Below, piece by piece: positions 245 to 41,080 of a stretch of DNA of 47,408 nucleotides. The stretch is taken from NCBI GenBank assembly GCA_030647325.1, contig JAUSJN010000054.1:1-47408 (forward strand), read 5' to 3'. Made by a program: the position numbers and the translations under genes. How positions within the stretch are numbered: the stretch's first letter is position 1; the number at the start of each line of letters is the position of its first letter. Source of the stretch: Nanobdellota archaeon (GTDB taxonomy: Archaea > Nanobdellota > Nanobdellia > Woesearchaeales > GW2011-AR9). Under the pieces are notes generated by a model that was not told the origin of the DNA, searched no databases, and was given only the letters and a program-made list of their open reading frames with translations.

Positions 245-820
245 ATGGAATCAAACAAATTGGAAATCAACACACCAGCGCCGAAATTTGAAGCGAAAGT
301 ATTTCAGAATGATGAGATCAAAACCATAAAATTAAGCAACTACCATGGAAAATGGGTGGTGTTAGTATTTTACCCTGCCGATTTTACTTTCATCTGCCCT
401 ACCGAGTTAGGAGAATTGGCGGATCATTATGAGGAATTGAAAAAAATCAATGTGGAAGTCTTGAGCGTCAGCACCGATACGGTCTTTACCCACAAGGCGT
501 GGTGGGATAATTCTGCGACCATCAAAAAAATAAAATTTCCCATGGTAGCCGATCCGAATGGGCAGATCTGCCGCAGCTATGGGACCTACATCGCTGAAGA
601 AGGATTGAGTCTGCGGGGAACCTTCATCATAGATCCTGACGGGATCTTGAAAGCATTTGAACTGCATGACAACAGTATCGGCAGAAGCGCGAAAGAATTA
701 TTACGGAAGATCAAAGCGGCGCAGTTTGTCAGGGAACACGGCGGAGAGGTCTGCCCTGCAAGTTGGGAACCGGGAAAAGCGACCTTGAAACCAGGATTGC
801 ATTTAGTAGGAAAAATTTAG
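245..820 (+). CDS. Typical 2-Cys peroxiredoxin (AhpC/Prx1 family)
   Basis: Contains the peroxidatic motif FYPADFTFICPTEL and the resolving-Cys motif GEVCPASW. A GGAGG ribosome binding site lies 5 nt upstream of the ATG. Confidence 0.95.
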   Translation: MESNKLEINTPAPKFEAKVFQNDEIKTIKLSNYHGKWVVLVFYPADFTFICPTELGELADHYEELKKINVEVLSVSTDTVFTHKAWWDNSATIKKIKFPMVADPNGQICRSYGTYIAEEGLSLRGTFIIDPDGILKAFELHDNSIGRSAKELLRKIKAAQFVREHGGEVCPASWEPGKATLKPGLHLVGKI

Positions 821-832
821 GAGGAAAGAGAC

Positions 833-1414
833 ATGGCATACACCGCGCAAAACTTTGATAATTTATTAGGATTGAAAGGATTCAGCGACCAGTTATTACA
901 AAATCATTTCAAATTGTATCAGGGATATGTTACCAACACTAACAAATTGATCGAATTGTTAGATAAACTTGAGTCAGGAACTCCAGAATATTCTGAACTG
1001 CAAAGGCGCTTCGGCTGGGAGTTTAATGGCATGCGGATGCATGAATTGTATTTTGGTAATATGATCAAAGGCGGCAAGGCCTTGAACAAAAATTCTTCCT
1101 TAGCTAAAGAACTAATTAAAACGTATGACAGCCTCGAGAACTGGGAAAAAAACTTCAAAGCGGTTGGCGCGATGAGAGGAATAGGTTGGGCGGCGCTGGT
1201 GTACGACCAAAAACAAAAAGAATTTTTTAACCTCTGGATCAACGAGCATGATGTCGGCCATTTAGCCGGAACTGTTCCCTTGCTGATCATGGATGTTTTT
1301 GAACATGCCTTCATGCTTGACTATGGATTGAATCGGGCGGATTACATCAAAGCGTTCATGGAAGCGGTTGACTGGGATGCGGTGCAGAAGCGCTTTGAGA
1401 AAGCGCAGCATTAG
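833..1414 (+). CDS. Fe/Mn superoxide dismutase family protein
   Basis: Contains C-terminal DVFEHAFMLDY (compare D-x-WEHAYY), GWAALVY (compare WGWL) and NGMRMHELYF (compare NHSLFW). The N-terminal helix motif is divergent (NHFKLYQGYV rather than HH-x-KHH-x-x-YV). A GGAGGAAAG ribosome binding site lies upstream. Confidence 0.8.
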   Translation: MAYTAQNFDNLLGLKGFSDQLLQNHFKLYQGYVTNTNKLIELLDKLESGTPEYSELQRRFGWEFNGMRMHELYFGNMIKGGKALNKNSSLAKELIKTYDSLENWEKNFKAVGAMRGIGWAALVYDQKQKEFFNLWINEHDVGHLAGTVPLLIMDVFEHAFMLDYGLNRADYIKAFMEAVDWDAVQKRFEKAQH

Positions 1415-1470
1415 TTTTCCTGGATTCTTTTTTCTTAATATTTTTAAACTGAGGCCATAAAAGCTCTTTT

Positions 1471-2661
1471 ATGACCTTATACGGCTTGGATTTAGTACGA
1501 GATCAAGATGGAAAATACCATCTTCTGGAAATAAATGGGATTAGTTCTGGAATGAAAGGTTTTGAGTACATTTATGGCGATAATAGGGTGGAAGAGAAGG
1601 TTTTTGAGATGCTGCAAAAGCGTTATGGGAATCTTACCGTCAATGACGGGACCTATGCAGAACTGCAATATAAAAAAGAACATCCTTTCAAATATGCTCT
1701 GGATACCGTTAGGGATAAAATCCCGTTTCTACGTAAAAAAAATCTTGCCTGGCTGAAATTACGTTCTTTACCCACGGCGCGTACAGATTGGGTCTTAGAG
1801 GAAGTTCCTTATTCCAAGGGGCGTATTTTCCCTTTTGATCCTTATATTGGGCAGGAATCAGCAGTATTAAGTACGCATTATAATGAAGAACTGTCTCACC
1901 CTTTAGTAAATCCATTTCTTACTGAAGCGATCGCCGCTAATAAATTTTTCACCGATCAAGTTTTAAGAAATTCTTCTATAGGGGAATTAGTCCCGCCCTC
2001 GACACTTCTTGGTTTGGGCTTTACCCACGAAGAGGAATTGGCAGAGCTTCTAGAGAGCGCTCCTTCCTTTGTCATAAAGCCAATATTGGGCACACAGGGA
2101 AGAGGACTAGAATTCCTCACCAGGGAAGATGCAAAAAAGCATCAACTCAGCCGCGGCCCCATAGAGCTTCTTAGTCCTCTTAATCAGATAAAGGCCTTAT
2201 ACGCAAATCCTGAAGATCTGTTGTATGTTGAGGATCTAGCCAAGATGGGCTTATTCTCATTTCAACATGGATTAGGGATCATCCAGCCTTTCATTGAATC
2301 TAAACGTCTTTTTGAAGGGATGGAGATGTATAGCTGCATCCGGGCTATTGTGTGCAACGAACAGTTCGTGGATGCGTATCTAAGAGTGAGTCCCCTAAAG
2401 AAAGCTAACTTATCTCAGGGAGCCCAGGCGTATCCTTGCAAAGACAAAGATGAGATCGTTTCTTTATCAGAGAAAATTGTCGCAGTCTTTGAAGAAGAAT
2501 GTTTCAGGTATGATCCAAAAAGTTTCCGGCAAGAACTGTATGGCCAGTACATCGAATCCCGGGGGAAGACCACTTTAGAAATGAAAAACAGAGATATCTT
2601 CAGCGGATTATCGACTCTGCTTGTAAATGTCACCAGCGGACTAGAACGCCGTTTACCGTAA
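1471..2661 (+). CDS. ATP-grasp (RimK-like) family protein with apparently permuted motif order
   Basis: Carries FVIKPILGTQGRGLEF (ATP-binding Lys loop), IIQPFIES (hinge), YSCIRAIVCNEQFVDAYLRVS and ANLSQGAQAYPC. The normally C-terminal motif YGLDLVRDQDGKYHLLEINGISSGMKGFE sits at the extreme N-terminus. Confidence 0.65.
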   Translation: MTLYGLDLVRDQDGKYHLLEINGISSGMKGFEYIYGDNRVEEKVFEMLQKRYGNLTVNDGTYAELQYKKEHPFKYALDTVRDKIPFLRKKNLAWLKLRSLPTARTDWVLEEVPYSKGRIFPFDPYIGQESAVLSTHYNEELSHPLVNPFLTEAIAANKFFTDQVLRNSSIGELVPPSTLLGLGFTHEEELAELLESAPSFVIKPILGTQGRGLEFLTREDAKKHQLSRGPIELLSPLNQIKALYANPEDLLYVEDLAKMGLFSFQHGLGIIQPFIESKRLFEGMEMYSCIRAIVCNEQFVDAYLRVSPLKKANLSQGAQAYPCKDKDEIVSLSEKIVAVFEEECFRYDPKSFRQELYGQYIESRGKTTLEMKNRDIFSGLSTLLVNVTSGLERRLP

Positions 2662-2997
2662 TACGATCTTCTCGGCAATAACTTCTTTTTCTCCTTTATA
2701 CTCTTCAACCTGCCCGGTCAGCTCAACATGATCTCCTTCCCGGAGATAGATGCTGCTGTCCGGGAATAAGATAATATCAGTGTAGACGATCTTCTCTCCT
2801 TCCAGTTCAAAGAACACTGCTTTATCCGTCACTTTAAGATTTTTTACTGTACCTTTCATCGCCACTTTTTCAGTAATAGCCACCGTCTCCAGATCAGCGG
2901 CAGATTCAAGATCCAAACCTTGGGCATACACCAACAGAAAACTTAGGCCAAGTACGGTGATGATGAGAGATAGCCTGACCAGCGTTTTTTCTTGCAT
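2653..2997 (-). CDS. Membrane-anchored OB-fold protein (nucleic-acid-binding OB-fold-like)
   Basis: Has an N-terminal TM helix (LVRLSLIITVLGLSFLLVYA). This is followed by a beta-rich segment, KGTVKNLKVTDKAVFFELEG...GDHVELTGQVEEYKGEKEVIAEKI, typical of tRNA-anticodon-type OB folds. Confidence 0.5.
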   Translation of the reverse strand: MQEKTLVRLSLIITVLGLSFLLVYAQGLDLESAADLETVAITEKVAMKGTVKNLKVTDKAVFFELEGEKIVYTDIILFPDSSIYLREGDHVELTGQVEEYKGEKEVIAEKIVLR

Positions 2998-3104
2998 GTT
3001 CTGTCCGCCGGCATACTTATTATATATATTTCTACACTGCAGTACATCAAATACTGCATTTTAAGTCCTAAATGTTTATATAGACTTTACTCCTTTATGA
3101 TAGC

Positions 3105-3287
3105 ATGTCCGAAGAAAGAGTAACCCAGTTAAGAGAAAATTTGTTCCAGCTAGAGCGCCGGATACGGCCGCTGGAATGGGACGCAGGCAGGAACCAGATC
3201 AATGAGTTCAAGAAACAGCAGTTAGGAAGATTGAAAGAAGAATTCACTGTCTTACAACAAGAATTGCATGGTCTGGAAAAACCATAA
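3105..3287 (+). CDS. Small hypothetical coiled-coil protein (60 aa)
   Basis: ORF preceded by a TATA-like TTTATATAG at about 3075. The sequence has heptad-like charged character and no recognisable family. Confidence 0.35.
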   Translation: MSEERVTQLRENLFQLERRIRPLEWDAGRNQINEFKKQQLGRLKEEFTVLQQELHGLEKP

Positions 3288-3372
3288 AACAAAGTAGATC
3301 CCTGTCTAGGGATTTCCAAGATTTACCTCAACATTTTTAAACTTCCATCAATTTAATCTATAAAAGAGGAGG

Positions 3373-6027
3373 ATGGGGATGAAATCGGTTATTTCTCTGC
3401 AGGAAAAAGCACATGCGCAGTCTCTGAAGGAACTATTTAATTATTATAATGCCTCTGAAAAAGGCCTTTCTAACCATGAAGCGGAACAGCGATTGCATTC
3501 TTTCGGCTTCAATGAACTTCAGGCTGCTAAAGAAGACAGTCCCCTGAAGATACTGTTGCGCCAATTTTCCAGCCCCTTAGTGATAATTCTTCTGGTCGCA
3601 GTGATCATTTCGTATCTGCTTGGCGAAAAGGTGGATGCGGGAATCATCACTATCATCGTCATAGTCAATGCCATCCTGGGCTTCATACAGGAATACCGCG
3701 CAGAAAAGACCTTGGAAGCGCTGCAAAAAATTGCCTCGCCTAAAGCAGTAGTGCTCCGTGAGGGAAAGGAGACCATCATCGAGAGCAGGAATGTTGTTCC
3801 CGGTGATATCATCGTCTTTAAAGTCGGCGATAAAATCTCTGCTGACGCGCGGCTGATCGAAGTGCACGACGTAAAGATGCAGGAAGCGGTGCTTACTGGC
3901 GAGTCACAGCCGGTCACCAAAAATATCGAAGTGTTGGATGCAAAGAAAGGGTTAGCCGATCGGCGAAACATGATCTATACTTCTACCATCGTCAGTAATG
4001 GCCGGGGAAAAGCGCTGGTCACCGCGGCGGGGATGAAAACGGAAGTAGGAAAAATCGCCCGTGATATCGCCGAGACGGAGGAAAAGATCTCTCCTCTGCA
4101 GGAAAATATCCAAGTGATGGGAAAATATCTCTCTATCGCCGTAGTGGTAGTCGCTATCGTCGTTTTTTTAGTTGGGATCGCGCAGGGATTAGGATATACC
4201 CTGATGTTCCTGACCGCAGTAGCTTTAGGCGTAGCGGCTATTCCTGAAGGGCTTCCTGCTATCATCACTATCTCGCTTTCCTACGGAGTACAGAAAATGG
4301 CCAAGCGCAATGCGCTGATTCGGAAACTTCCTTCCGTGGAGACGCTGGGCAGCGTCGATGTCATCTGCACTGATAAGACCGGCACGCTGACCCATAATGA
4401 GATGACCGTGACCAAGATCTGGCTCAACAACGCGCTGTATGATGTGACTGGTTCAGGGTATGAAGCAAAAGGCTCCTTCATGCTTGACAATAAAGCTGTC
4501 AAGCCGGATTCTCTGCAGATCATCCTCAAAATAGGAGCGCTTTGCAATGATGCTGAATTTGATAAGAAAAAAAAAGTGATTGGCGATCCGACTGAGGCTG
4601 CCTTGTTAGTATCAGCAGAAAAAGCCGGCCTCCTGCGGACAAAACTGGAACAGGAAGAACCGCGCGTGGATGAGATCTCCTTCTCTTCAGAAAGGAAGAT
4701 GATGACTACCATCCATCAGACTAAGTTCGGGAAAGTCTCTTACACCAAAGGGGCTCCTGATATTCTGCTGAAAAACTGTAACAGTATCCTGATCAATGGC
4801 AGCGTGCAGCGTTTAGACAAGAAGAAAAAAGAAGAGATCCTGCATCAGAATGAAGTCCTGGCGGGAAATGCGCTTCGCCTGCTCGGATTTGCCTACAAGC
4901 CGAAAGTCCAAGGAAAAGAAGATGCGGAAAAAGATATGATCTTCGTCGGACTGCAGGCCATGATCGATCCGCCGCGAAAGGAAGTGAAAGAAGCGATACA
5001 GAAATGTATTGATGCTGGAATACGGGTCATCATGATCACCGGGGATCAATTGAGCACTGCCAAAGCCATCGCCGCCCAGATAGGAATCACCGGAGATGCT
5101 CTCAGCGGTGAGGAATTGAACCAACTGAAGAATCTTACTGCCCATATAGAAGACATCAACATCTTCGCTCGGGTAGATCCTGAACACAAGCTGCGCATCG
5201 TTGAAGCATTAAAGAAAAAAGGCCATAAAGTGGCGGTCACCGGAGACGGGATCAATGATGCTCCTGCTTTGAAAAGAGCGGATATCGGCATCGCCATGGG
5301 CGTGACCGGGACTGATGTGGCGAAAGAAGCAGCAGATATGATCTTGCTTGACGATAATTTTGCCTCTATCGTCAATGCGGTAGAAGAAGGGAGAGGGATT
5401 TACGATAACCTCCGGAAGTTTGTCAATTACTTGCTCTCCAGTAATTTCGCCGAGATTTTAGTTATCTTCTTGGCCATGGTCATCTTTGCTCCTTTTTTTG
5501 GTTTGGGCCTGCCGCTGACTCCTATCCACATCCTCTGGATAAATTTAGTCACTGATGGTCTGCCGGCAGTAGCCTTAGGCGTGGATCCATTTCAAAAAGA
5601 GATCATGAAACGAAAACCGCGCGAGTATGAGGAATCTATCATCAACAAAGAGATGATCATCAGTATCCTGACTTTAGGGATGCTGATCGCTTTTGTGGTA
5701 CTCTTTTTATTCTGGTCGTACCGGAATGCTATCCCGGGAAAAGCGCAGACCATGGTCTTTACCGCCTTGGTGGTATTTGAGCTAGTGCGTTTACACATGA
5801 TCCGGATGCATTATCATCTGTCTATTTTTTCAAATGGTTATCTAGTGGCAGCAGTAGTGCTTTCCCTGGTTCTTCAGGCTATTGTAATGTATGTGCCTTT
5901 CCTTGCCGGCTCCCTCGGAGTGGTGCCTTTAGGGTTCATGGATTGGGCATGGATAGGTATCGCAGCAGCAGGAATAGTGGGGTTGAATTGGATCATACAT
6001 AAAGTAAGGAAGCTTAATTTTGTGTGA
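3373..6027 (+). CDS. P-type cation-transporting ATPase, type IIA (Ca2+/SERCA-like)
   Basis: Contains TGES, the phosphorylation site DKTGTLT, MITGD, VTGDGINDAPALKRADIG, and 10 predicted TM segments. The second ATG at 3379 is better spaced from the GAGGAGG at 3366-3372 and may be the true start. Confidence 0.95.
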   Translation: MGMKSVISLQEKAHAQSLKELFNYYNASEKGLSNHEAEQRLHSFGFNELQAAKEDSPLKILLRQFSSPLVIILLVAVIISYLLGEKVDAGIITIIVIVNAILGFIQEYRAEKTLEALQKIASPKAVVLREGKETIIESRNVVPGDIIVFKVGDKISADARLIEVHDVKMQEAVLTGESQPVTKNIEVLDAKKGLADRRNMIYTSTIVSNGRGKALVTAAGMKTEVGKIARDIAETEEKISPLQENIQVMGKYLSIAVVVVAIVVFLVGIAQGLGYTLMFLTAVALGVAAIPEGLPAIITISLSYGVQKMAKRNALIRKLPSVETLGSVDVICTDKTGTLTHNEMTVTKIWLNNALYDVTGSGYEAKGSFMLDNKAVKPDSLQIILKIGALCNDAEFDKKKKVIGDPTEAALLVSAEKAGLLRTKLEQEEPRVDEISFSSERKMMTTIHQTKFGKVSYTKGAPDILLKNCNSILINGSVQRLDKKKKEEILHQNEVLAGNALRLLGFAYKPKVQGKEDAEKDMIFVGLQAMIDPPRKEVKEAIQKCIDAGIRVIMITGDQLSTAKAIAAQIGITGDALSGEELNQLKNLTAHIEDINIFARVDPEHKLRIVEALKKKGHKVAVTGDGINDAPALKRADIGIAMGVTGTDVAKEAADMILLDDNFASIVNAVEEGRGIYDNLRKFVNYLLSSNFAEILVIFLAMVIFAPFFGLGLPLTPIHILWINLVTDGLPAVALGVDPFQKEIMKRKPREYEESIINKEMIISILTLGMLIAFVVLFLFWSYRNAIPGKAQTMVFTALVVFELVRLHMIRMHYHLSIFSNGYLVAAVVLSLVLQAIVMYVPFLAGSLGVVPLGFMDWAWIGIAAAGIVGLNWIIHKVRKLNFV

Positions 6028-6129
6028 TTTTAAAGCTAAACATTTTTAAATGCAAGCTCAAAATAAGAATGATAGCTGAGGCAGCATAAGCGTGATCCAG
6101 AAAGGATCTTTAGCCTCGGGAGGAAAAAC

Positions 6130-6525
6130 ATGGAATTAAAATTAGTATTAGGGACAAAGGACGGAAAGTCTTATCAAAAAGAAGTAAAAGATGCCGCTGC
6201 AGAAGCGTTGCATAACAAAGTTATCGGGGACACTGTTTCTGGCGAAGAACTTGGTTTTCCAGGATACGAATTCTTGATCACCGGCGGTTCTGACAAGTGC
6301 GGATTCCCCATGCGGAAAGGCATCCAGGCAGCCCGTAAGAGAATAATCGCGGGGAAAAGCGTTGGTTTTTCAGGCTTAGATCGCAATAAGAAGAAGCAGC
6401 CAGGATTGCTCAATAAGAAAACTGTCTGCGGTGAAAGGATCTCAAAAATAATCCATCAGGTCAACCTGAAAGTATTGAAAGAAGGATCTCAGCCATTGGT
6501 CGAAGAAGCTGCGAAAGGGCAGTAA
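6130..6525 (+). CDS. rps6e: 30S ribosomal protein S6e
   Basis: The motifs MELKLVLGTKDGKSYQKEV...GYEFLITGGSDKCGFPMRKG...KRIIAGKSVGF are characteristic of archaeal S6e. A GGGAGG ribosome binding site lies upstream. Confidence 0.9.
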   Translation: MELKLVLGTKDGKSYQKEVKDAAAEALHNKVIGDTVSGEELGFPGYEFLITGGSDKCGFPMRKGIQAARKRIIAGKSVGFSGLDRNKKKQPGLLNKKTVCGERISKIIHQVNLKVLKEGSQPLVEEAAKGQ

Positions 6526-6554
6526 AATTTATTTTCTCTTTTCTGTCAAAATAT

Positions 6555-6815
6555 GACTGGGCTGACCATCGGTCAATAGACCGATGGCATGTTCGCTTCG
6601 CTCACAAGAAAATTGAAAACTATCAATTTTCTGTGCTGAAATTAAATCGTTGTTTCATTTCATGCACCGCCCAGCCTAATTTTGAGCACGCATGAAATTT
6701 GAAAAATATCAAATTTCAGCGCTGAAAATAAATCTTTGTTTATTTTCATGCGCAAGAAGTCCACACATTGATAAGTGGTTTGCTTGCAAACCACCACCCT
6801 ATAGAGTGGTGGAAT
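6555..6815 (+). ncRNA. Candidate structured RNA or paired-hairpin intergenic element, copy A
   Basis: Components:
- hairpin 6566-6587 (CCATCGGTC-AATA-GACCGATGG)
- conserved 17-mer CATGTTCGCTTCGCTCA at 6588-6604
- tandem hairpins at 6603-6635 and 6633-6667, closed by CTGGGC 6557-6562 / GCCCAG 6669-6674
- a second tandem hairpin pair at 6687-6753
- two mutually exclusive hairpins at 6775-6812
Related copies lie at 25293-25492 and 32720-32931 on the opposite strand. Confidence 0.45.
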
Positions 6816-6848
6816 TCTCCGCGTTTAAATCAACTCCAAAACAAAAAA

Positions 6849-6856
6849 TTTTTAAA
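6849..6856 (+). promoter_or_regulatory. TATA-box-like promoter element for the 6883 gene
   Basis: TTTTTAAA is preceded by an A-rich BRE-like tract and lies 26 nt before the ATG at 6883. No SD sequence is present, so the transcript is probably leaderless. Confidence 0.4.
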
Positions 6857-6882
6857 CCCCTTTTATTTTCCTATAAGGTATA

Positions 6883-7083
6883 ATGGCTACAGTCAATCAA
6901 TTCCTCAGTAATTTTCAACAACAAGTAATGTTATTCAACCGTAGGTCAGCTGCCTTTTTCTCCTTTCTGGGGATGAAGCTCAAGAATTTCAGCTCTTTGA
7001 CCGTCCAGGAACAGATCTCGTTCGGTTTTATCGGCATCGGCCTGGTATTGATCGTAACATCGATAGTTTTATTTTTGGTATAG
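6883..7083 (+). CDS. Small membrane protein (66 aa), hypothetical
   Basis: Has a C-terminal TM helix (ISFGFIGIGLVLIVTSIVLFLV), lies 10 nt upstream of the next gene, and has a TATA-like element upstream. Confidence 0.4.
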   Translation: MATVNQFLSNFQQQVMLFNRRSAAFFSFLGMKLKNFSSLTVQEQISFGFIGIGLVLIVTSIVLFLV

Positions 7084-7093
7084 AGGTACAAAC

Positions 7094-7975
7094 ATGAATC
7101 TAGAAGAAGAAGAACAACCACAATTGCAGGGAAAAATCAATCCTTTTAGGGGATCACAGCAATCTACAGAAAAGATTATTCCTTTAAAGGGATTACCGAG
7201 GCCTAAGCAGCCGCAACAGGAGAAAAGTAAGCTTCAGGACAAGCCTCAAGGTAAAGAAGGCAAAGAATTTACTATCACTCTAAAACCCTGGAAGTTTGTA
7301 AAAGGATTTTTAATCTTAGTTTTGCTTCTGGGTGTTTTCTTCGCCGGCCGTCTTAGCGTCGGAGAAGGTTCTGTTCTCCCTGATTTTTCAACCTATTTCA
7401 GCAGCGATTCCGGTCCTTCTGGTTTAGCCACTGGTGATACAGAAGAAGCAGAAGAGCAGGAAGCAACTACGGAAGCAGCTGAAGAAGTTCCAGCTGAACC
7501 GGTAGTAGAAGAAAATGCGACCGAAGAGACTCAGCTTGCAGAGGATGAAACTGCGTTACCAGCAGAAGAGACCGAAGATAAACCTGAGAAATTTGTTGAT
7601 GAAGAGTATTCGCAAGTAACCTTATCTCTTGATGGCGTCTATAAAGACTGGAAAGGGACCTGGGGAAAGATAAAAGGCGTAAAGTATACTATCACTAATA
7701 ACGAAGTTGGAACGGTCAAACCGCATCACTTTTCCATGATTGTGGAAGGATACGAAGACGGAGAGAAGCATTTTGATGTGGGTATTGCTTCTCAAAGGAT
7801 CAAATCAGAGAAAACTGTAAGCGATGAAGCTGCAGTTACTGGCGGATTTGCGTATAGTCCAGTGACTATTCCGGACGGAGATTTGACCAAAGTGCGGATC
7901 TCTTTATTCCTTCTTGATGTTAATGGGGAGACTATGGCTTCTGTGCATCAAGACATGGATCTAAGCGGAAATTAA
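7094..7975 (+). CDS. Hypothetical single-pass membrane protein with an acidic linker and a beta-rich C-terminal domain
   Basis: Has a Q/K/P-rich N-terminus, a TM helix (FVKGFLILVLLLGVFFAG), an E/T/A-rich low-complexity linker, and then a roughly 120-aa beta-rich domain. No family recognised. Confidence 0.6.
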   Translation: MNLEEEEQPQLQGKINPFRGSQQSTEKIIPLKGLPRPKQPQQEKSKLQDKPQGKEGKEFTITLKPWKFVKGFLILVLLLGVFFAGRLSVGEGSVLPDFSTYFSSDSGPSGLATGDTEEAEEQEATTEAAEEVPAEPVVEENATEETQLAEDETALPAEETEDKPEKFVDEEYSQVTLSLDGVYKDWKGTWGKIKGVKYTITNNEVGTVKPHHFSMIVEGYEDGEKHFDVGIASQRIKSEKTVSDEAAVTGGFAYSPVTIPDGDLTKVRISLFLLDVNGETMASVHQDMDLSGN

Positions 7976-8020
7976 TTTTTTTATCTTTCTTATTTTTCTT
8001 TTACCATTTCTAGCCTTGAT

Positions 8021-8052
8021 TTTTAACTTTAAATTTTCTTTTAACTTTAAAT
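8021..8052 (+). promoter_or_regulatory. Two 14-nt direct repeats (TTTTAACTTTAAAT) upstream of the nitroreductase promoter
   Basis: Exact copies lie at 8021-8034 and 8039-8052, followed by TATATATA at about 8060-8068 and the ATG at 8090. Confidence 0.35.
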
Positions 8053-8089
8053 CGTTAAGTATATATATCTCAAAAATTTAATCAGCAGT

Positions 8090-8758
8090 ATGGCCGATAT
8101 ACTGGAAGTGATCAAATCACGGAGAAATGTTACCCAGTTTCTTCCTAAGTTTGTTTCCTGGGAGAATATTTCTCGGGTCTTAGACGCAGGACGGCATGCT
8201 CCCAGTTGCGGTAATATCCAGAATTGGAAATTCATTGTCGTTCTCAAGCCTGAGATGAAGCAGGAGATCGCTGCCGCTTCTTATGATCAATATGAAATCG
8301 CCGCTGCCTTTGCTCTCATAGTAGTTTGTGCTGAACCGGAAAAAGCAGAACGCTATTATGGGGAAAAAGGAAAAACATTCTATTCAGTGCAGAATTGTGC
8401 GGCTGCGGCGCAGAATATGCTATTAGAAGCGCATGCTCTCGGTTTAGCCACCAGATGGGTGGGAGCATTTGATGAAGCAAAAGTAAAAGAACTTCTTAAA
8501 ATTCCTGAAGAAGTGGAAGCGCACACCATCATTGCTCTTGGCTATGCTAAAGATGTTCTGGCTAAACCACCCAAATATCCTCTGGAAACGTTAGTCTATT
8601 TCGGAGCATGGAGAGCCAAGATAGCAGATCCGGCCAAGTATCTGAATGATATTGCCACTATCCTGGCTAGAAAAGCGCACTCTACATCTGAGGCGATCAA
8701 GAAAGGGCAAGAGTATGTGGTGGAAAAGGTTAAAGAAGTTGTAGGGAAGAAGGAATAA
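8090..8758 (+). CDS. Nitroreductase family protein
   Basis: Contains IKSRRNVTQF, RHAPSCGNIQNWKFIVV, NCAAAAQNMLLEAHALGLATRWVGAF and ALGYA, which together form the classic FMN nitroreductase fold signature. Confidence 0.85.
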   Translation: MADILEVIKSRRNVTQFLPKFVSWENISRVLDAGRHAPSCGNIQNWKFIVVLKPEMKQEIAAASYDQYEIAAAFALIVVCAEPEKAERYYGEKGKTFYSVQNCAAAAQNMLLEAHALGLATRWVGAFDEAKVKELLKIPEEVEAHTIIALGYAKDVLAKPPKYPLETLVYFGAWRAKIADPAKYLNDIATILARKAHSTSEAIKKGQEYVVEKVKEVVGKKE

Positions 8759-8769
8759 GAACAATAACT

Positions 8770-9210
8770 TTAGTCTTTCTTAAACGGTGTAAATTCGTTA
8801 GGGTAAAGATACACGACCGGGAAATAATCTTCTGAATCTCCGCATTTTCTTTCTCCGGAAGTTACGAGACTGGAAGAGGCCTTTGGGCCAAGGCAATAAT
8901 GTGTAGCATGGCTGGGTCTTTTCATAGTGCTACCTACCAACTGAATCTTACCTGTTCTTTCTGCAGAGTAGGGATCGTCTTTTAGCAAGTAATGGTCTGA
9001 TTTTCTCACTTCGGTATCATATGAAACAGTCACTAAACCAACGCCGGCAAAGGCTAAACTTAACATTGGTCTGTTATCTGCGCTAACATATTTTTCTCTA
9101 TCTTCAGACCAGAATACTTCAGTTATCTCATCTAACTTAAGCTCTTCTGCTACTTTTCTCGGTAGATCTTCTTTTCGTAGATTTTTCATAGTAAGCGCCT
9201 CAAAAAACAT
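8770..9210 (-). CDS. Hypothetical protein
   Basis: Long ORF with codon usage similar to its neighbours. No recognised motif. An internal Met at 9189 is an alternative start. Confidence 0.45.
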   Translation of the reverse strand: MFFEALTMKNLRKEDLPRKVAEELKLDEITEVFWSEDREKYVSADNRPMLSLAFAGVGLVTVSYDTEVRKSDHYLLKDDPYSAERTGKIQLVGSTMKRPSHATHYCLGPKASSSLVTSGERKCGDSEDYFPVVYLYPNEFTPFKKD

Positions 9211-9594
9211 ACCGTAAACTCACTTAATAAGAATTTAGCTTTTCTAAGCTATCTGTCTGGTTTTTATCAAAAATAAGCTCAAATGACTATCTATCTTCTG
9301 CAATATATATTTTAAAGAAAAATAATATTTAAATATAAGTAGTACATTACTAAACTCAAAAGGGTTGGTCGCCCTTGATTAGTTATTTGGTCCGTACTCG
9401 GTCAGTTGAGTTTTGTACTTACTTTCTGTTTCTTGTAAGCTAATTTCTCATCCATAATTGGTCAGATTATGCACGACAAACTTGAGAATAGAACAGTAGA
9501 ACTAGTATATAATAATTTATGTACTAGAGAATATAGTTCTCAAACTGAGAACTATTAAAAAGGGTGGACACACAAAAAATTTGAGGTGGTAAGA

Positions 9595-10662
9595 ATGGAT
9601 TTTTTAGTTGAAAGGGCATTGCAAAACGCACCGGCAGAGGACGATTTTGCACATATGAGTCAAGCGAATATTAAGGTTATTGGAGTAGGCGGAGCCGGCA
9701 ACAACATGGTTGGCTGGTTATACAAAAAAGGAATAAAGGGAGCAGAAATTATCGCTACCAACACCGATCATCAGCACTTGCAGATAACAGGAGCTGACAA
9801 GAAATTTCTTATTGGTAGAGACTGCACTAGAGGACTTGGATGCGGCGGATTCCCTAACAAGGGAGCAGAAGCAGCTCAGGAATCCTTGATGGCATTGAAA
9901 GAAGCCCTGAAAAGCGCAGATATGGTTTTCGTTTGCGCAGGTATGGGCGGTGGGACAGGAACAGGAGCAGCTCCAGTAGTGGCGCAAGTCGCTAAGGATA
10001 CTGGCTCAATCGTCATCGGGACTGTCACTATGCCTTTCAATATCGAGCGCGCTAGGTGCGATAAGGCAGAATTCGGACTGCAGCAGTTGCGACAAGTCTC
10101 TGATACTGTTATCGTCATCGATAACAACAGGCTAGTGCAGATTGCTGGTAACTTACCGATCCAACAAGCTTTTGCTGTAGCTAACGAATTAGTAGCTACT
10201 ATGATCAAAGGTATCGTTGAGACTATCGCTGTACCTTCACTGGTCAATCTGGACTACGCAGACGTAAAAGCAATTATGTCTAACGGCGGAGTTGCAGCCA
10301 TCGGTGTAGGAAGCTCAGATACGAACAACCGCGTAGAAGAAGCAGTCAAGGGAGCTTTAAGCAATCCTTTGCTTGACATCAACTACGAAGGAGCTACCGG
10401 AGCTTTGATCCACGTCACAGGTGGACCAGACATGACTCTCGATGAAGTCAGCCGGATTGGTGAATTGGTGACTGAATCCTTAGATGATGACGCTAACGTT
10501 ATCTGGGGAGCTCGGGTTGCTGACGAAATGAAGGGCAAACTTACGGTGATGACCATCATCACTGGTGTCAACTCACCATGGATCTTGGGAAAGCTTGACA
10601 ACAGGCATTCACAACAACGGGCGAAGAGCTTAAGCAAAGAACTAGGCATAGAACTGGTTTAA
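9595..10662 (+). CDS. ftsZ: Cell division protein FtsZ
   Basis: Contains IKVIGVGGAGNNMV, the tubulin signature GMGGGTGTGAAPVVA, and NLDYADVK. The ATG at 9595 lies 5-6 nt after GAGGTGG; the ORF-track start at 9586 is a GTG inside that ribosome binding site. Confidence 0.95.
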   Translation: MDFLVERALQNAPAEDDFAHMSQANIKVIGVGGAGNNMVGWLYKKGIKGAEIIATNTDHQHLQITGADKKFLIGRDCTRGLGCGGFPNKGAEAAQESLMALKEALKSADMVFVCAGMGGGTGTGAAPVVAQVAKDTGSIVIGTVTMPFNIERARCDKAEFGLQQLRQVSDTVIVIDNNRLVQIAGNLPIQQAFAVANELVATMIKGIVETIAVPSLVNLDYADVKAIMSNGGVAAIGVGSSDTNNRVEEAVKGALSNPLLDINYEGATGALIHVTGGPDMTLDEVSRIGELVTESLDDDANVIWGARVADEMKGKLTVMTIITGVNSPWILGKLDNRHSQQRAKSLSKELGIELV

Positions 10663-10821: not shown

Positions 10822-11715
10822 TTATGGTAAAAAAGTATTTATCTTACTTTCTATGAGATTAACCAGTTTGACTCTGTCTGTAACTAAGAGATATATAATT
10901 AGTGTAACAATAATTACAAAAACGAGTGCCTTTGAATATTTGTTTAGAAAATCTAAACAATTAGTACTAGAGGAGATTATTCTACTTAAAAATTTATGAT
11001 GATTGTCCTTATAATGTAAATCAACTAGGAACTGAAAAAATGAAGTTTCTTTTTTTACACCCATTACAGCTTGAACATATTCAATATTTTCCAGATATCC
11101 TTGTTTCTCCTTTAGTTTATCATTGAATTCTAAGATAATGTACTTAATCTGAGAATAAGATCTTTTATCAATTATGCTTCCGAGTTTGTCAAAAAATTCT
11201 TGAAAGTCTTTGTTGCTAACATCAATATTAAGTTCGCTAACTATCCTCCTTAAAAAAGGAGAAAGAACTTTAATTTCATCTTCTTTATAATAAAAACCAC
11301 CAATATTTCTTATTAAATTATTTATGTGTTTTTTTGTTTCGTTAATTTCTTTTGATTTTCTTATTTTAAAGATTGCAAATCTAATTAAGGCTTCTTTACT
11401 TAAAAAACCACTCGGAATAAAAATATAAAAAACTAAGACCAAGAACATACCTAATAAAAAGAAAAAGAGTAGAATAAATTTTATCCAAAGACTAGACCAA
11501 CTGATAAATATCCCTATTCCCATTAATATTGTTAAAGTGAGAAGAATGGGGAATAAAATAATCAAAAATAGAGTAATTAAAAAAAGGATTAACTTAAAAT
11601 AGTTATAATTATTGATATTCGCCTTTCGCCATACTTTATCTAAAAACTTAATAGTTCTATCTTTTTCTGAAATTTTATCTAATATAGAAGAAATTAATTC
11701 TGTAAACCAGGTCAT
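10822..11715 (-). CDS. Hypothetical multi-pass membrane protein in a strongly A+T-rich islet
   Basis: The 297-aa ORF is very rich in K/I/F/L/N codons. It has three N-terminal TM helices and one C-terminal TM helix. Its composition is visibly far more A+T-rich than the flanking ftsZ and proS. Confidence 0.55.
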   Translation of the reverse strand: MTWFTELISSILDKISEKDRTIKFLDKVWRKANINNYNYFKLILFLITLFLIILFPILLTLTILMGIGIFISWSSLWIKFILLFFFLLGMFLVLVFYIFIPSGFLSKEALIRFAIFKIRKSKEINETKKHINNLIRNIGGFYYKEDEIKVLSPFLRRIVSELNIDVSNKDFQEFFDKLGSIIDKRSYSQIKYIILEFNDKLKEKQGYLENIEYVQAVMGVKKETSFFQFLVDLHYKDNHHKFLSRIISSSTNCLDFLNKYSKALVFVIIVTLIIYLLVTDRVKLVNLIESKINTFLP

Positions 11716-11891
11716 TGTTTAAATAGTGGTGTTTTTTATTTATAATTCTTTCCTGGCGAAAAAAAGGAAAATTGACTTAGTGAACTTTCATAAGAAAATT
11801 TATGGGTTCTTTGAAGAAGAGAAGAATGTATCGCACGCAGATCAACAAAATTATTTGAATTTACTTGAATAAGAAAATACCAACAAAAACG

Positions 11892-11899
11892 TTTAAATA
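11892..11899 (+). promoter_or_regulatory. TATA box of proS (leaderless)
   Basis: TTTAAATA is preceded by AAAAACG (BRE-like) and followed by 23 nt before the ATG at 11923. No SD sequence. Confidence 0.5.
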
Positions 11900-11922
11900 A
11901 CCAAACCTTCTTCTCAAGGCGT

Positions 11923-13377
11923 ATGTCGTCCAAGAAAAGCACCTTAGGGATCACTGTAAAAAAAGACCAGGATTTCTCTGAATGGTACACCCAGCTTCTG
12001 CAAAAAGCAGAATTGATAGAATACTCTGCCGTTTCCGGCTGTTACATCCTGCGTCCTAATGCCTATCACATCTGGGAAAAAGTGCAGGAATTCCTTGACA
12101 GATTGATCAAAGCTGATGGAGTGAAAAATGCCTATTTCCCTTTACTTATCCCGGAAAGCCTGTTAGCCAAAGAAGAAAAACATATCCAGGGATTTGCTGC
12201 AGAAGTCGCCTGGGTGGAATCAGGAGGACATTCTAAATTACCTGAACGGCTGGCTATCCGTCCGACTTCAGAAACTATCATCAATGACACCTATGCCAAA
12301 TGGATCCGTTCGCATCAGGATTTACCCTTGCGATTGAACCAATGGTGCAATGTGGTACGCTGGGAATTCAAACATCCTGTCCCTTTCCTCAGAAGCAGAG
12401 AATTCCTCTGGCAGGAAGGCCATACTGCTTTTGCTACCAAAGAAGAAGCGGTGAAAGAGACCTACACGATTTTAGATTTCTATGAAAGAGTGTTTACCGA
12501 ATTATGTGCCCTTCCAGTTCTGAAAGGAAGGAAAGCAAAAACAGAGACCTTCGCCGGAGCAGATTATTCGCTTTCTTTAGAAGTATTTTTGCCTAACGGC
12601 AAAGCCATCCAGGGCTGCACCTCCCATCATCTCGGGCAAAATTTTGCCAAGGCTTTCAACATCACTTTTCAAGATGAGAAACAGCAATCACAATATGTCT
12701 GGCAGAATTCCTGGGGTCTTGCCACGCGTCTGCTGGGGATCATGATCATGATGCATTCTGATGATAAAGGATTGGTGTTACCGCCAAGACTAGCCTTGAC
12801 CCAAGCAGTGATCATCCCTATCCTATTTGATGATTCTCGAGTTAAGGTCTTGAAAGAGGCGCAGAAAATAAAATCGGCCTTGGAAAAGAAAGGCATCTCA
12901 GTACATCTTGATGATCGTGAGGGTTATTCTCCGGGCTGGAAGTTCAATGAGTGGGAGATGAAAGGTGTTCCAGTGAGGATTGAATTAGGTCCAAAAGATC
13001 TTGAAAAGAGACAAGCTATGGTAGCGCGTCGGGATACCGGAGAGAAACAAGCTCTCTCTCTGGCTGGTGTAGATGCTAAAATAAAACTATTGCTGGAACA
13101 GATGCAGCAGGACTTGCATGTAAAGGCTGAAAAATTCCTCCAACAAAGTATCGTCAAAGCAGAAAACCTGAAAGATGCAGAGAAAGCAGTAAGTGCAGGA
13201 AAGATTGCTTTCGTACCCTGGTGCGGAACTGAAAAATGCGAAGAAAAGTGGAAGGAGCGTACTAACGCTAAATCATTGAATTCTCCATTAGAGCAACCGA
13301 AGATGAAAAGTGGCCAGTTATGTTTTGCTTGCAAAGAAAAAGCTAATTCTTGGTTTTATATCGGAAAGAGTTATTGA
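11923..13377 (+). CDS. proS: Proline--tRNA ligase, archaeal/eukaryal type
   Basis: Contains FSEWYTQLLQKAELIEY, class II motifs (IRPTSETI, FLWQEGHTAF, QNSWG), and a C-terminal zinc-binding domain ending ...FYIGKSY. Confidence 0.95.
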   Translation: MSSKKSTLGITVKKDQDFSEWYTQLLQKAELIEYSAVSGCYILRPNAYHIWEKVQEFLDRLIKADGVKNAYFPLLIPESLLAKEEKHIQGFAAEVAWVESGGHSKLPERLAIRPTSETIINDTYAKWIRSHQDLPLRLNQWCNVVRWEFKHPVPFLRSREFLWQEGHTAFATKEEAVKETYTILDFYERVFTELCALPVLKGRKAKTETFAGADYSLSLEVFLPNGKAIQGCTSHHLGQNFAKAFNITFQDEKQQSQYVWQNSWGLATRLLGIMIMMHSDDKGLVLPPRLALTQAVIIPILFDDSRVKVLKEAQKIKSALEKKGISVHLDDREGYSPGWKFNEWEMKGVPVRIELGPKDLEKRQAMVARRDTGEKQALSLAGVDAKIKLLLEQMQQDLHVKAEKFLQQSIVKAENLKDAEKAVSAGKIAFVPWCGTEKCEEKWKERTNAKSLNSPLEQPKMKSGQLCFACKEKANSWFYIGKSY

Positions 13378-25292: not shown

Positions 25293-25492
25293 TCTGCTTT
25301 TTCCACCAGTGTGTTCACCAGAAATAAGGAAAATACCTTATTTCTGTGCAGAAAAGCAATAGTTTTTGCTTTTCTTGCACTGGTGGTAAATCGTTGATTT
25401 CACATTAGTTGGAAAAAACAGGGTCCGAGAAAACCGCCCTGAGCGAAGCGAACATGCAGCTGGTCTATTGACCAGCTGTGGGTGGTTTTCGA
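25293..25492 (-). ncRNA. Candidate structured RNA or paired-hairpin intergenic element, copy B (consensus orientation on the minus strand)
   Basis: Components:
- tandem hairpins at 25316-25380, enclosed by CCACCAGTG / CACTGGTGG
- TGAGCGAAGCGAACATG at 25440-25456, the exact reverse complement of the 17-mer in copy A
- hairpin CAGCTGGTC-TATT-GACCAGCTG at 25457-25478, enclosed by AAAACCGCCC / GGGTGGTTTT. Confidence 0.45.
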
Positions 25493-25566: not shown

Positions 25567-25755
25567 ATGTCTGAAATTCGTTATCTTTGCACGGGGAGTT
25601 GCGGCCAGATGGTCACCAGAGAAACCTACCTGCAGGGACGGAAGAAATGCAATGACAAATCCTGTGACAGTTTTAGCTCTGCGTTAGAGCGTGGGGAATA
25701 CTGTTCGCAATGCAATACCAGTTTTGATGAAGGCGAGGATCACATCTGTATATGA
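25567..25755 (+). CDS. Small Cys-rich (zinc-ribbon-like) protein, 62 aa
   Basis: Contains C-x3-C (CTGSC), C-x4-C (CNDKSC), C-x2-C (CSQC) and HIC. A TATA box (TTTATAAA) lies at 25523-25530. The stop codon overlaps the pepF start (ATGA). Confidence 0.55.
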   Translation: MSEIRYLCTGSCGQMVTRETYLQGRKKCNDKSCDSFSSALERGEYCSQCNTSFDEGEDHICI

Positions 25756-27504: not shown

Positions 27505-27612
27505 AAGAAATCACTTAAATAATCGTAAGATTATCAAAACTTAAGTGATTTCTTTATTAGGAAATAACTTTAGATTTGCTTTTCAGCTATCTGAAAATTA
27601 AAGTTATTTCCT
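27505..27612. repeat. Two tandem 14-bp perfect stem-loops, each capped by an inner mini-hairpin
   Basis: AAGAAATCACTTAA at 27505-27518 pairs with TTAAGTGATTTCTT at 27541-27554, with an inner hairpin ATAATC-GTAA-GATTAT. AGGAAATAACTTTA at 27559-27572 pairs with TAAAGTTATTTCCT at 27599-27612, with an inner hairpin TTTTCAG-CTAT-CTGAAAA. The element lies between the pepF stop and the TATA box of the next gene. Confidence 0.6.
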
Positions 27613-27648
27613 ATAAACTTTTAAAAATGAGGGGAGTCTTTCACCTTC

Positions 27649-32719: not shown

Positions 32720-32931
32720 GCAGATATCGTCGTCACAAGAAATCAAACAACGATTTGATTTCTGTGCAGAAATGAGGTAGTTTTCCGCATTTCTTGCATG
32801 GCCTTAAGGCGAGCCGAGAACAGCTCTTGCTTGGCACGTAATTCATTGATGCTTTCCCTCCAAATTTACTTGCGATGTTCAGCTAAAAAACAAAGAGAAA
32901 GCACGAGGCGAGCGGCCAAGACGATATCTGC
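32720..32931 (-). ncRNA. Candidate structured RNA or paired-hairpin intergenic element, copy D (consensus orientation on the minus strand)
   Basis: A perfect 12-nt closing inverted repeat joins GCAGATATCGTC 32720-32731 with GACGATATCTGC 32920-32931. Tandem hairpins at 32734-32797 have loops identical to copy A when read on the minus strand (AAAACTA and TCGTTG). A degenerate TGTTC..GC.TCGC motif precedes them. Confidence 0.4.
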
Positions 32932-40976: not shown

Positions 40977-41080
40977 GCTCCTTTCTAAGGGTTACTCATA
41001 TAAATATTTTTCTTCTCTCAGTACTCTCGGTTAGACTTTCACAAAAACATTTTTATACCCTACCCTTATCCACGATACTC

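Follow-up and report, generated by a model that had tools for sequence, protein, structure and literature searches.

Four hairpin pairs in the window

The DNA studied here, "the window" below, is the whole 47,408-nt stretch of a Nanobdellota archaeon contig, and our subject is a family of short hairpin pairs of which it holds four copies. Two of them, A1 and A2, stand in tandem in element A, within the 357-nt spacer (6526-6882) between rps6e (6130-6525; Pfam Ribosomal_S6e, E=6e-26) and a small open reading frame (ORF) at 6883-7083. The other two, B and D, lie further along. An earlier note on this DNA had described the hairpin pairs and a CTGGGC/GCCCAG repeat between 6557 and 6753, and the same architecture in copies B and D. 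We found all of the listed features at these positions and the units of copies B and D at 25315-25380 and 32733-32799. With A1 (6602-6667) and A2 (6688-6753), these are the four 66-nt hairpin pairs of the window. The insert within each is as follows.

6605..6664, no strand: pair A1, 60-nt insert CAAGAAA...TTTCATG; hairpin 1 at 6607-6632, center GTGC at 6633-6636, hairpin 2 at 6637-6662; flanked by CA at 6603-6604 and 6665-6666
6691..6750, no strand: pair A2, 60-nt insert CATGAAA...TTTCATG; hairpin 1 at 6693-6718, center GCGC at 6719-6722, hairpin 2 at 6723-6748; flanked by CG at 6689-6690 and 6751-6752
25318..25377, no strand: pair B, 60-nt insert, center GTGC; flanked by CA at 25316-25317 and 25378-25379 (plus-strand reading)
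32736..32796, no strand: pair D, 61-nt insert (one loop of 7 nt), center GTGC; flanked by CA at 32734-32735 and 32797-32798

The hairpins 6607-6616/6623-6632, 6693-6702/6709-6718, and 6723-6732/6739-6748 are 10/10 complementary with 6-nt loops, and hairpin 6637-6646/6653-6662 is 9/10 complementary. CTGGGC/GCCCAG (6557-6562/6669-6674) encloses the first unit and belongs to a longer 24-nt inverted repeat (6546-6569/6662-6685, 75% complementary). As the earlier note had proposed, we searched with a covariance model; it recovered exactly the four window copies at E values of 1e-14 to 1e-16, with no other match in the window below E=0.5. The tandem 66-nt units A1 and A2 are 82% identical. We rejected a CRISPR array given this degree of identity, the abutting inverted hairpins, and a sole CRISPR repeat model match (E=9.6) that lies outside the element.

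The pairs are inverted doublets with covarying stems

We searched one genome per prokaryotic species with the degenerate pattern GAAA-N16/17-TTTC-WGYRCW-GAAA-N16/17-TTTC (W, A or T; Y, pyrimidine; R, purine; N, any base), which matched at least 115 stretches of genome contigs. We counted 261 hairpins of the pair type in 790 kb of element-bearing loci, compared to 3 after shuffling. The anatomy was read from ~110 copies, and formal pairing counts were taken from 87 ungapped copies. The consensus of the mobile unit is 5'-C-A-[WGAAA N5 - N1 AAC N5' A - N5 TTTCW]-G-YR-C-[WGAAA N5 - T N GTT N - N5 TTTCW]-T-G-3', an insert of ~60 nt with the ends 5'-CAWGAAA...TTTCWTG-3'. That of a single hairpin unit is YRC-(A)-WGAAA-N5-[N1-A-A-C/A-N5'-A]-N5-TTTCW-GYR.

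All four Watson-Crick pairs are in use at the five variable stem pairs; column 12/25 has GC in 33 copies, UA in 24, AU in 19, and CG in 11, with no mismatches. The "loop" contains one further covarying pair (A:T in 72 and C:G in 50 of 157) that closes a triloop and is followed by a nearly invariant unpaired A (153/157). A second base is unpaired at the foot of the stem. Hairpin 2 of a pair corresponds to the same kind of unit in reverse complement and has a T-rich loop. Thus, the pair is an inverted, tail-to-tail doublet that reads the same on either strand. The loop order was A-rich/T-rich in 85 of ~120 groups, and we did not see the reverse order as a lone pair among these groups. The two units overlap at the central YR of GYRC. 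The three bases 5' of hairpin 1 pair with GYR, and the three bases 3' of hairpin 2 pair with YRC, each in 102 to 108 of 110 copies.

The earlier note had seen conserved stem bases and loops with covarying upper stems, and the 87 copies bear this out. We found that 96.6% of the stem cells are paired, compared to 74.0 ± 0.6 in shuffles, and that 551 cells are changed on both sides, compared to 192 ± 17 in shuffles. The covariation score was 0.573, versus 0.173 for shuffled alignments and at most 0.095 with slid partners. One-sided changes numbered 5, versus the 551 double-sided ones, and only 13 of 2262 cells were G-U. The variable stems have 43 mismatches in 900, with 0 to 10 of the 87 copies unpaired per position, and G-T was not preferred in either reading. 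We conclude that the covariation of the stems is genuine. Because the feet and loops are conserved and the upper stems truly covary, the folded form is under selection. To this extent, the "selected RNA or single-stranded DNA fold" of the earlier note stands; a conserved structured RNA tied to downstream genes is not supported (see below).

In some variant pairs, the GAAA/TTTC foot is missing from one of the hairpins (L028 4903-4975, L268 3390-3450, and L250 7202-7284; L numbers label the compared loci and contigs). One example, AGAAGGAC-AAAA-GTCCTTCT, retains the CA...TG ends and the GYRC center. Since such variants exist, the family is wider than the pattern that we searched.

The pairs are insertions flanked by a duplicated dinucleotide

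For 112 copies, we deleted the pair and one YR copy in silico and searched for the restored 48-mers in DPANN sequence. The restored junction matched without gaps elsewhere for 30 of the 112 copies. Control deletion frames (+2, -2, and +4 nt, in which both YR copies were kept, none was kept, or the terminal C...G was kept as well) gave 1, 1, and 0 matches. The flanking dinucleotides are identical in 102 to 106 of 110 copies, and the flanking YR pairs with the central GYRC in 102 to 108 of 110. The centers are GCAC (35 copies), GTGC (28), GTAC (26), and GCGC (21), and all four YR dinucleotides are therefore used as targets. The target is biased toward R-YR-Y, with a purine at -1 in 90 of 110 copies and a pyrimidine at +1 in 88 of 110, and so resembles the element's own center. 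Pairing between the two outer flanks was rejected, as it occurs in only 5 of 63 copies with a nonpalindromic center. So was a model in which hairpin units are inserted singly, because it fails to give the t / rc(t) / t pattern.

Filled and empty versions of the same site could be compared directly at the window loci. The A1 site is empty in L080 (GCTTCGCT-CA-CCCCTG) and reads GCTTCGCT-CA-[pair]-CA-CCGCCCAG in the window. In L007, it is filled with four hairpins, the second pair being nested within the central TG of the first. Pair A2 (CG, center GCGC) and the pair of L080 (CA, center GTGC) occupy adjacent dinucleotides of the same backbone, ATTTTGAGCACGCAAG. Pair B stands between two TGs where L024, L008, and L068 read CCAC(Y)(R)G-TG-AACA-CAC... 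unbroken; the uninterrupted host hairpin is CCACTGG-TG-AACA-CACCAGTGG in L024 and CCACCAG-TG-AAACA-CACTGGTGG in L008 and L068. At the D locus, the empty site of L245 is GTCGTCGTC-TA-GGCCAAGAGGCGA, and the window has GTCGT-CA-[CAAGAAATC...CATTTCTTG]-CA-TGGCCTTAAGGCGA. Elsewhere, L036 has a filled and an empty version on one contig, 1.2 kb apart, with flanks that are 100% identical. Among the composites of genome JACPNA01 (see below), L042 represents the empty state and L016, L008, and L068 the filled one. Further filled/empty pairs are L059/L084, L074/L079, and L031/L019.

We next consider the orthologous sites. With the protein of 27649-28692 as the query, a scan of metagenome contigs returned 44 related loci, at 38 to 84% protein identity. 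For each of the three window loci, at least one related genome has an orthologous site without the element. L239 and L240 have no element B between the orthologous genes, and element D is absent in L245 and L267. In L017, which is syntenic with window positions 245-10662, only ~50 nt separate rps6e from the next ORF; the whole ~300-nt element A is missing, and the promoter-proximal sequence is conserved. L006 has a different module set at the site of B, and there are pairs in L017, L088, L111, and L250 at places where the window has none. The model found 3 matches in 397 kb of relatives, compared to 4 in the 47-kb window. We conclude that the pairs are discrete ~60-nt insertions flanked by a duplicated YR. 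The earlier note had set its proposal against near-identical mobile repeats of the MITE (miniature inverted-repeat transposable element) or REP (repetitive extragenic palindromic) type with target-site duplications. The YR duplication, the empty orthologous sites, and the unrelated contexts largely agree with such repeats, but the copies are not near-identical, since their stems vary and yet keep Watson-Crick pairing on both strands.

The selected fold is a DNA fold

The earlier note had all copies pointing toward the downstream gene. We found instead that the model scores the two strands of each window copy equally (84.0/83.2, 81.3/80.7, 80.4/79.8, and 76.7/75.4 bits). Given these scores and the pseudo-two-fold symmetry, the pair itself has no orientation. 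This bears on the possibility that the pairs are a structured RNA family (cis-regulatory, a stabilizer of the 3' untranslated region, or a small RNA) transcribed toward the downstream gene. Such a family would account for the strong fold of the 357-nt spacer, which as RNA has z = -8.6 relative to shuffles, but the opposite strand folds as well (z = -8.7); the DNA folds of the two strands are equal, and each unit folds on its own. It would also account for the abundant covariation, but G-U pairs are nearly absent. A G-T becomes an A-C when the other strand is read, and selection on both DNA strands predicts a near-zero number of G-U pairs.

Copies frequently lie 50 to 150 nt past a stop codon, as an RNA element might, and bacterial REPs can work at the RNA level (PMC3733652). 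Nevertheless, a simple ORF map placed 14 intergenic copies between divergent and 17 between convergent genes, in addition to 45 in tandem settings, and the window copies sit upstream of the TATA-like boxes of the downstream genes, as read off the sequence. The empty orthologous sites and the insertions with duplicated target dinucleotides likewise argue against an RNA. Nor was there an Rfam match: no family reached its gathering score across the whole window, and a permissive scan of 6450-6950 gave rliE as the best hit, at 22.6 bits (gathering score 90) and E=0.17. In this, the earlier note, which could assign no RNA family, was right. Taken together, these data make an RNA family very improbable. 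A strand-specific, G-U-tolerating RNA was rejected by the equal strand scores and the 13 G-U cells in 2262. An RNA with a fixed gene position was rejected by the empty ortholog sites in L017, L239/L240, L245, and L267, by the occurrence of all gene orientations, and by the lack of a recurrent neighbor family. C/D-box and H/ACA small RNAs and K-turns were rejected by comparison with their consensus sequences, since there are no tandem G-A pairs and CTGA is not conserved. A tRNA/tmRNA search of the window found none.

The stems might instead be transcription terminators, which the earlier note had offered as a simple alternative and which would explain hairpins in intergenic DNA downstream of genes. 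Archaeal termination, however, depends on oligo-T tracts and is not known to rely on hairpins. No T-run follows the pairs, the stems are A+T-rich, and 14 copies lie between divergent genes. A scan for terminator-like sites marked 6508-6523 alone and was blank at the pairs. We consider this explanation extremely improbable. The marked site is a feature of its own, a short G+C hairpin (GCTGCGAAAGGGCAGT) at 6508-6535 that overlaps the stop codon of rps6e, with a T-rich tract after it; it is the sole terminator-like site in the region and is upstream of the element.

We conclude that the selected feature is the DNA hairpin fold of a mobile repeat rather than an RNA. There is a caution here for RNA discovery, in that mobile DNA hairpins can mimic perfect covariation with conserved loops. 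Telltale signs of DNA hairpins are that G-U pairs are almost lacking and that the two strands score equally.

Pairs are inserted in larger composites

What elements A and B have in common goes beyond the pairs. In each, a class-2 hairpin (NNNCTGGTS-AAYA-SACCAGNNN, whose stem covaries) is followed by an invariant 17-mer, CATGTTCGCTTCGCTCA, and a covarying long-range stem encloses the block. The parts of the two composites in the window are as follows.

6546..6685, plus strand: type-1 composite backbone hosting A1; closing repeat TCAAAAT-N4-CTGGGC (6546-6562) with GCCCAG-N4-ATTTTGA (6669-6685)
6566..6587, plus strand: class-2 hairpin CCATCGGTC-AATA-GACCGATGG, 9/9 complementary
6588..6604, plus strand: invariant 17-mer CATGTTCGCTTCGCTCA, common to copy B and to composites in other genomes; consensus CATGYTCGCTTCGCTC
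6775-6794, plus strand: trailing hairpin GTGGTTTGC-TT-GCAAACCAC of composite A
6791-6812, plus strand: trailing hairpin CCACCAC-N8-GTGGTGG of composite A
25294..25491, minus strand: type-2 composite, the context of copy B, with P1, class-2 hairpins, 17-mer, and P2
25490-25480 with 25439-25429, minus strand: P1 stem, GAAAACCACCC with GGGCGGTTTTC
25478-25457, minus strand: class-2 hairpin of the type-2 composite
25456-25440, minus strand: 17-mer of the type-2 composite
25421-25410 with 25305-25294, minus strand: P2 stem, CTGTTTTTTCCA with TGGAAAAAGCAG
25386-25378 with 25311-25303, minus strand: second class-2 hairpin, with pair B inserted in its loop, CCACCAGTG with CACTGGTGG

The backbone at 6546-6685 thus holds the class-2 hairpin, the conserved 17-mer, and the inserted pair A1, and the CA at 6603-6604 is both the end of the 17-mer and the left copy of the duplicated target of A1. 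The counterpart of the 6566-6587 hairpin in copy B is CAGCTGGTC-AATA-GACCAGCTG, and the stem covaries between the two. Type 1, closed by TCAAAAT...ATTTTGA, comprises window A, L080, L007, and L006, of which the last three have the covarying stems CAGGGG/CCCCTG, CTGGCG/CGCCAG, and GGCTGGC/GCCAGC, respectively. GTGGTTTGCTTGCAAACCAC is found after the L080 composite as well. Type 2 comprises window B, L008, L016, L024, L042, L063, L068, L084, and L113; its second domain is closed by CTGCTTTTTCCA/TGGAAAAAGCAG, a stem that covaries in L016 and L113. In one genome, four near-identical ~270-nt type-2 copies lie on four contigs with unrelated flanks.

A third composite, TTAAAGAAAATCCTGAAAAG...CTCTTTTCATTTAA, was found in five genomes (L039 6250-6700, L070, L074, L079, and L088). 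It is highly conserved, its flanks are unrelated, and its layout is TTAAAGAAAATCCTGAAAAGCGACTA ... GGGGATTTACGC[pair]GCGCCGCTTTTCCGAGACGGATTTTCTAAA ... GGGGATTTCTGCTCTTTTCATTTAA; the window has none. The composites carry 0, 1, 2, or more pairs in their loops and are themselves dispersed repeats. The class-2 loop reads AACA in L063 (minus strand, ~7760-7800) and TGTT in L084 (minus strand, ~7720-7760), with the rest identical, which is a flip/flop inversion of a DNA palindrome. CCAGTGGAAA, present in some composites, was considered as an archaeal origin recognition box by comparison with the consensus and was rejected, since that stem covaries.

Host range and genomic context

Among the matches listed, all but ~6 chance ones were metagenome-assembled genomes labeled Woesearchaeota, Nanoarchaeota/Nanoarchaeia, or "archaeon." The exceptional label was "uncultured Methanosarcinales," under which L005, L007, L020, L021, L026 to L029, L038, L047, L071, and others carry the element. 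Some of these loci have genes and gene order in common with the window (an example is the cluster with window positions 40913-42379), and the label "uncultured Methanosarcinales archaeon" is probably wrong. Several genomes have at least 3 to 8 loci each. The genes beside the window copies are ordinary or housekeeping (PterinBD-DUF4346, M3 peptidase, trypsin-like peptidase, and ELP3), and no gene family was a recurrent neighbor of the copies. Where elements are closely spaced, the ORFs between them look either ordinary or spurious.

In the source sample, SRR13727527, short-read contigs (Logan) of the same population break off within A and B, where the two share the 17-mer and the class-2 hairpin (L234 3397-3464, L235 1-297, and L280 1-238). 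Such repeat-induced assembly breakage is expected for repeats; pair repeats break Woesearchaeota short-read assemblies.

The pair pattern had 0 matches in viral contigs. A viral origin by way of the 16-mer CATGYTCGCTTCGCTC was rejected, since its 68 viral matches, versus 50 for the reversed control, are at chance level. Many of the viral 16-mer matches are a Shine-Dalgarno-like GAG, a spacer, and an ATG on the other strand. Rfam gave no match around the 16-mer in the viral loci, and blastn of the whole element against curated phages and plasmids gave none below E=0.3. Two observations on the viral matches are recorded separately. In a high-GC phage-like contig (L141 5011-5055; IMGVR_UViG_3300021560_000037), CATCGGCGCACTGCGCCGATGG-CATGTTCGCTTCGCTCAC matches the hairpin foot and 18-mer as in window positions 6566-6605 and reaches 10 nt past the searched 16-mer. 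Among T-variant viral matches, "AC" after the 16-mer is far commoner than expected.

Comparison with known systems

By analogy, the elements work most like REP doublets (REPINs) and small MITEs. They resemble REPs, REPINs, and bacterial interspersed mosaic elements (BIMEs) in being short extragenic palindromes in tens of copies per genome, mostly in inverted doublets and patchy among relatives. REPINs are inverted REP doublets that are placed at random in extragenic space and often show compensatory changes (PMC3116915). Dimers of REPs whose stems differ, and which lie within target palindromes, are also on record (PMC3733652), and such heterodimers and nesting in larger palindromes are seen here. 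The differences are several. The host here is archaeal (DPANN), and no REP-associated tyrosine transposase (RAYT) was found by tblastn of 823 kb with an Escherichia coli RAYT query; RAYT-type TnpA_Y1 subclasses are reported solely from bacteria (PMC6006769). The GTAG and CGTC superfamilies of REPs have a terminal tetranucleotide beside the palindrome (PMC3733652), whereas the consensus ends here are YRC-A-WGAAA/TTTCW-GYR, without either tag; membership in these superfamilies was therefore rejected. Strict REPIN membership was rejected as well. The inverted doublet is present (85 groups), but the pair folds as two separate hairpins with unrelated upper stems and halves that are 75% complementary, and a REPIN is one long hairpin. 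In addition, the units here overlap by YR, and the center is complementary to the flanking dinucleotide.

The IS200/IS605 family has imperfect end hairpins with extrahelical bases that are recognized as folded single-stranded DNA, and IS608 reads its sites by internal guide pairing. The likeness to this family and its palindrome-associated transposable elements (PATEs) is one of working principle only, in that the central GYRC here pairs with both flanks. Their hairpins are in the same orientation on one strand and no duplication is made; those here are inverted and strand symmetric, with a dinucleotide on both sides, and no TnpA or TnpB was found nearby. For these reasons, derivation from IS200/IS605 was rejected (for an overview of the family, see PMC6006769).

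With MITEs (Correia and IS630 types), the pairs share small size, lack of coding capacity, high copy number, terminal inverted repeats, intergenic position, and a 2-bp duplication, the last established from filled and empty sites. They differ in being 60 nt long, in having a variable yet self-complementary interior, in using four YR targets, and in having a center complementary to the target. We know of no cognate insertion sequence (IS) for the pairs. A MITE census counted 105 MITEs per Mb in one Woesearchaeal genome (PMC11602168), and so repeats of this general sort have already been counted in bulk. Our own search of the literature for Woesearchaeota/DPANN hairpin repeats, and for the 16-mer as text, returned nothing relevant and no description of the pair architecture.

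Two other systems were compared. Pneumococcal BOX elements and enterobacterial BIMEs have variable numbers of hairpin modules inside conserved end modules, as do composite types 1 to 3 with 0, 1, 2, or more pairs; the sequences are unrelated, and the modules here are separate insertions with duplicated dinucleotides. Integron attC sites conserve structure over sequence, have conserved extrahelical bases, and are recognized as folded single strands. The pairs share the conserved structure and the extrahelical bases but are strand symmetric and lack R'/R'' boxes (GTTRRRY), cassette arrays, and a nearby integrase. An attC identity was rejected because GTTRRRY boxes are not visible in the consensus and the neighbors are housekeeping genes.

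Nature and possible mechanism of the element

The explanation that we regard as probable is that the pairs are a miniature nonautonomous mobile DNA element, REPIN/BIME- or MITE-like, specific to some Woesearchaeota/Nanoarchaeota genomes. Any effect on neighboring genes would be incidental. The element may move in a folded single-stranded or cruciform form. A putative enzyme would then read the hairpin shape, namely, a 10-bp stem of any sequence, the conserved GAAA/TTTC foot, two bulged bases, and a triloop whose closing pair covaries. The covariation would follow because copies with nonpairing stems would fail to propagate, leaving compensatory changes, and use of the module on both strands would explain why only Watson-Crick pairs are tolerated. 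The central GYRC might pair with the YR of an end or a target, in the manner of the IS200/IS605 guide tetranucleotides. The pairs are inserted in intergenic DNA, in the loops of larger dispersed palindromic composites, and in the centers of other pairs.

Several findings weigh against this explanation. The stems of the four window pairs are all different, and active copying would be expected to leave identical copies. Hairpin types are freely combined among the pairs, so that the copying unit may be either the pair or the single hairpin. A classical target-site duplication leaves the complementarity of center and dinucleotide unexplained. In L098 versus L240, the empty site is TT and the right-hand copy is TG, the complement of the center; this single case hints that one YR copy was brought by the element instead of being duplicated from the target. 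The relatives are at least 15% diverged in protein sequence, and some absences could be deletions. Neither a transposase nor a nuclease turned up near the elements, and no recurrent neighbor protein family emerged from all-versus-all clustering of 979 locus ORFs or of the 201 ORFs nearest to hairpins. The tblastn queries, IS608 TnpA and E. coli RAYT, are weak ones; they had no match in the 823 kb. No autonomous element with the same ends was seen in ~1.2 Mb of DPANN sequence. Exact-protein lookups for population polymorphism matched solely in the source sample. Finally, the feet, the loops, and whole composites are strongly conserved across species, and this could reflect a host function.

That last point bears on another explanation, that the pairs are DNA structural sites retained by the host, cruciforms or lagging-strand folds that are bound by a host protein, rarely spread, and kept by selection, as proposed for bacterial REPs in nucleoid organization, gyrase-like roles, and replication or repair. 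Besides the conserved feet, loops, bulges, and composites, some insertions are shared (window D and L014 are nearly identical, flanks included), and pairing is Watson-Crick only, on both strands. However, the orthologous sites of relatives do without the elements, the density ranges between 4 per 47 kb and 3 per 397 kb in relatives, and there is no positional preference relative to genes. To our knowledge, no binding protein for the elements has been described. We judge such sites to be quite improbable, although less so than an RNA family.

Alternatively, a DDE transposase of the IS630/Tc1-like type, cutting with a 2-bp stagger, could move the same insert in double-stranded form, with CAWGAAA/TTTCWTG as terminal inverted repeats and the hairpins as a by-product. 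IS630-family MITEs duplicate a dinucleotide, TA, and a two-base duplication is seen at the insertion site here, but the targets are all four YR dinucleotides and not TA alone. Terminal inverted repeats are present, and the center, TTTCW-GYRC-WGAAA, resembles two abutted ends; its complementarity to the duplicated dinucleotide is nevertheless unexplained by such a transposase. Nor does this mechanism require the five variable internal pairs to be complementary, which they are (0 to 10 unpaired copies of 87 per position), or the triloop, its covarying closing pair, and the bulged A (153/157) to be conserved. No DDE gene was seen near the copies. We consider this explanation unlikely.

Within the explanation that we prefer, a mobile DNA hairpin element, we tentatively put forward a more specific model, possible but itself doubtful as it stands. 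The pair would be an archaeal mobile mini-element of a kind not described before, a strand-symmetric two-hairpin module that transposes as folded single-stranded DNA or a cruciform. Its own GYRC would act as a guide that picks the YR site (R-YR-Y), and it would be mobilized in trans by an enzyme so far unrecognized in DPANN archaea, whether HUH-like, recombinase-like, or entirely new. If true, Archaea would have a REPIN-like replicator system that works without a RAYT, and a change of the central dinucleotide would retarget the element.

REP/REPIN replicators and RAYT transposases are regarded as bacterial (PMC6006769, PMC3116915). An analog in reduced DPANN genomes would extend such selfish DNA to Archaea and would imply an unrecognized mobilizing enzyme. 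With many clean filled and empty sites and the rule that the center is complementary to the YR, the insertion mechanism is directly testable, which is difficult for REPs.

Other features of the window

The small ORFs 25567-25755 and 6883-7083 (62 and 66 amino acids) have no Pfam match and are conserved in relatives. ORF 25567-25755 shares 4 nt (ATGA) with the start of the M3 peptidase gene and is present in L006, L239, L240, and L250; ORF 6883-7083 has a counterpart in L017. Both are probably real small genes, marking the positions of promoters relative to the elements.

Two more long nested hairpins lie in the spacer (27505-27613) that separates the M3 peptidase gene from the next gene. The first is AAGAAATCACTTAA...TTAAGTGATTTCTT, with 14/14 bp and an inner hairpin within its loop, and the second is TAGGAAATAACTTTAGATTT...AAAATTAAAGTTATTTCCTA (20 nt, 90%). 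They have GAAAT feet, as in the hairpin units of the pairs (class 1), and are built differently; L250 holds a class-1 pair in the same spacer. Window positions 11001-12000, which lie over ORF 10822-11715 (minus strand) and its surroundings, have a G+C content of 0.27, compared to ~0.42 elsewhere.

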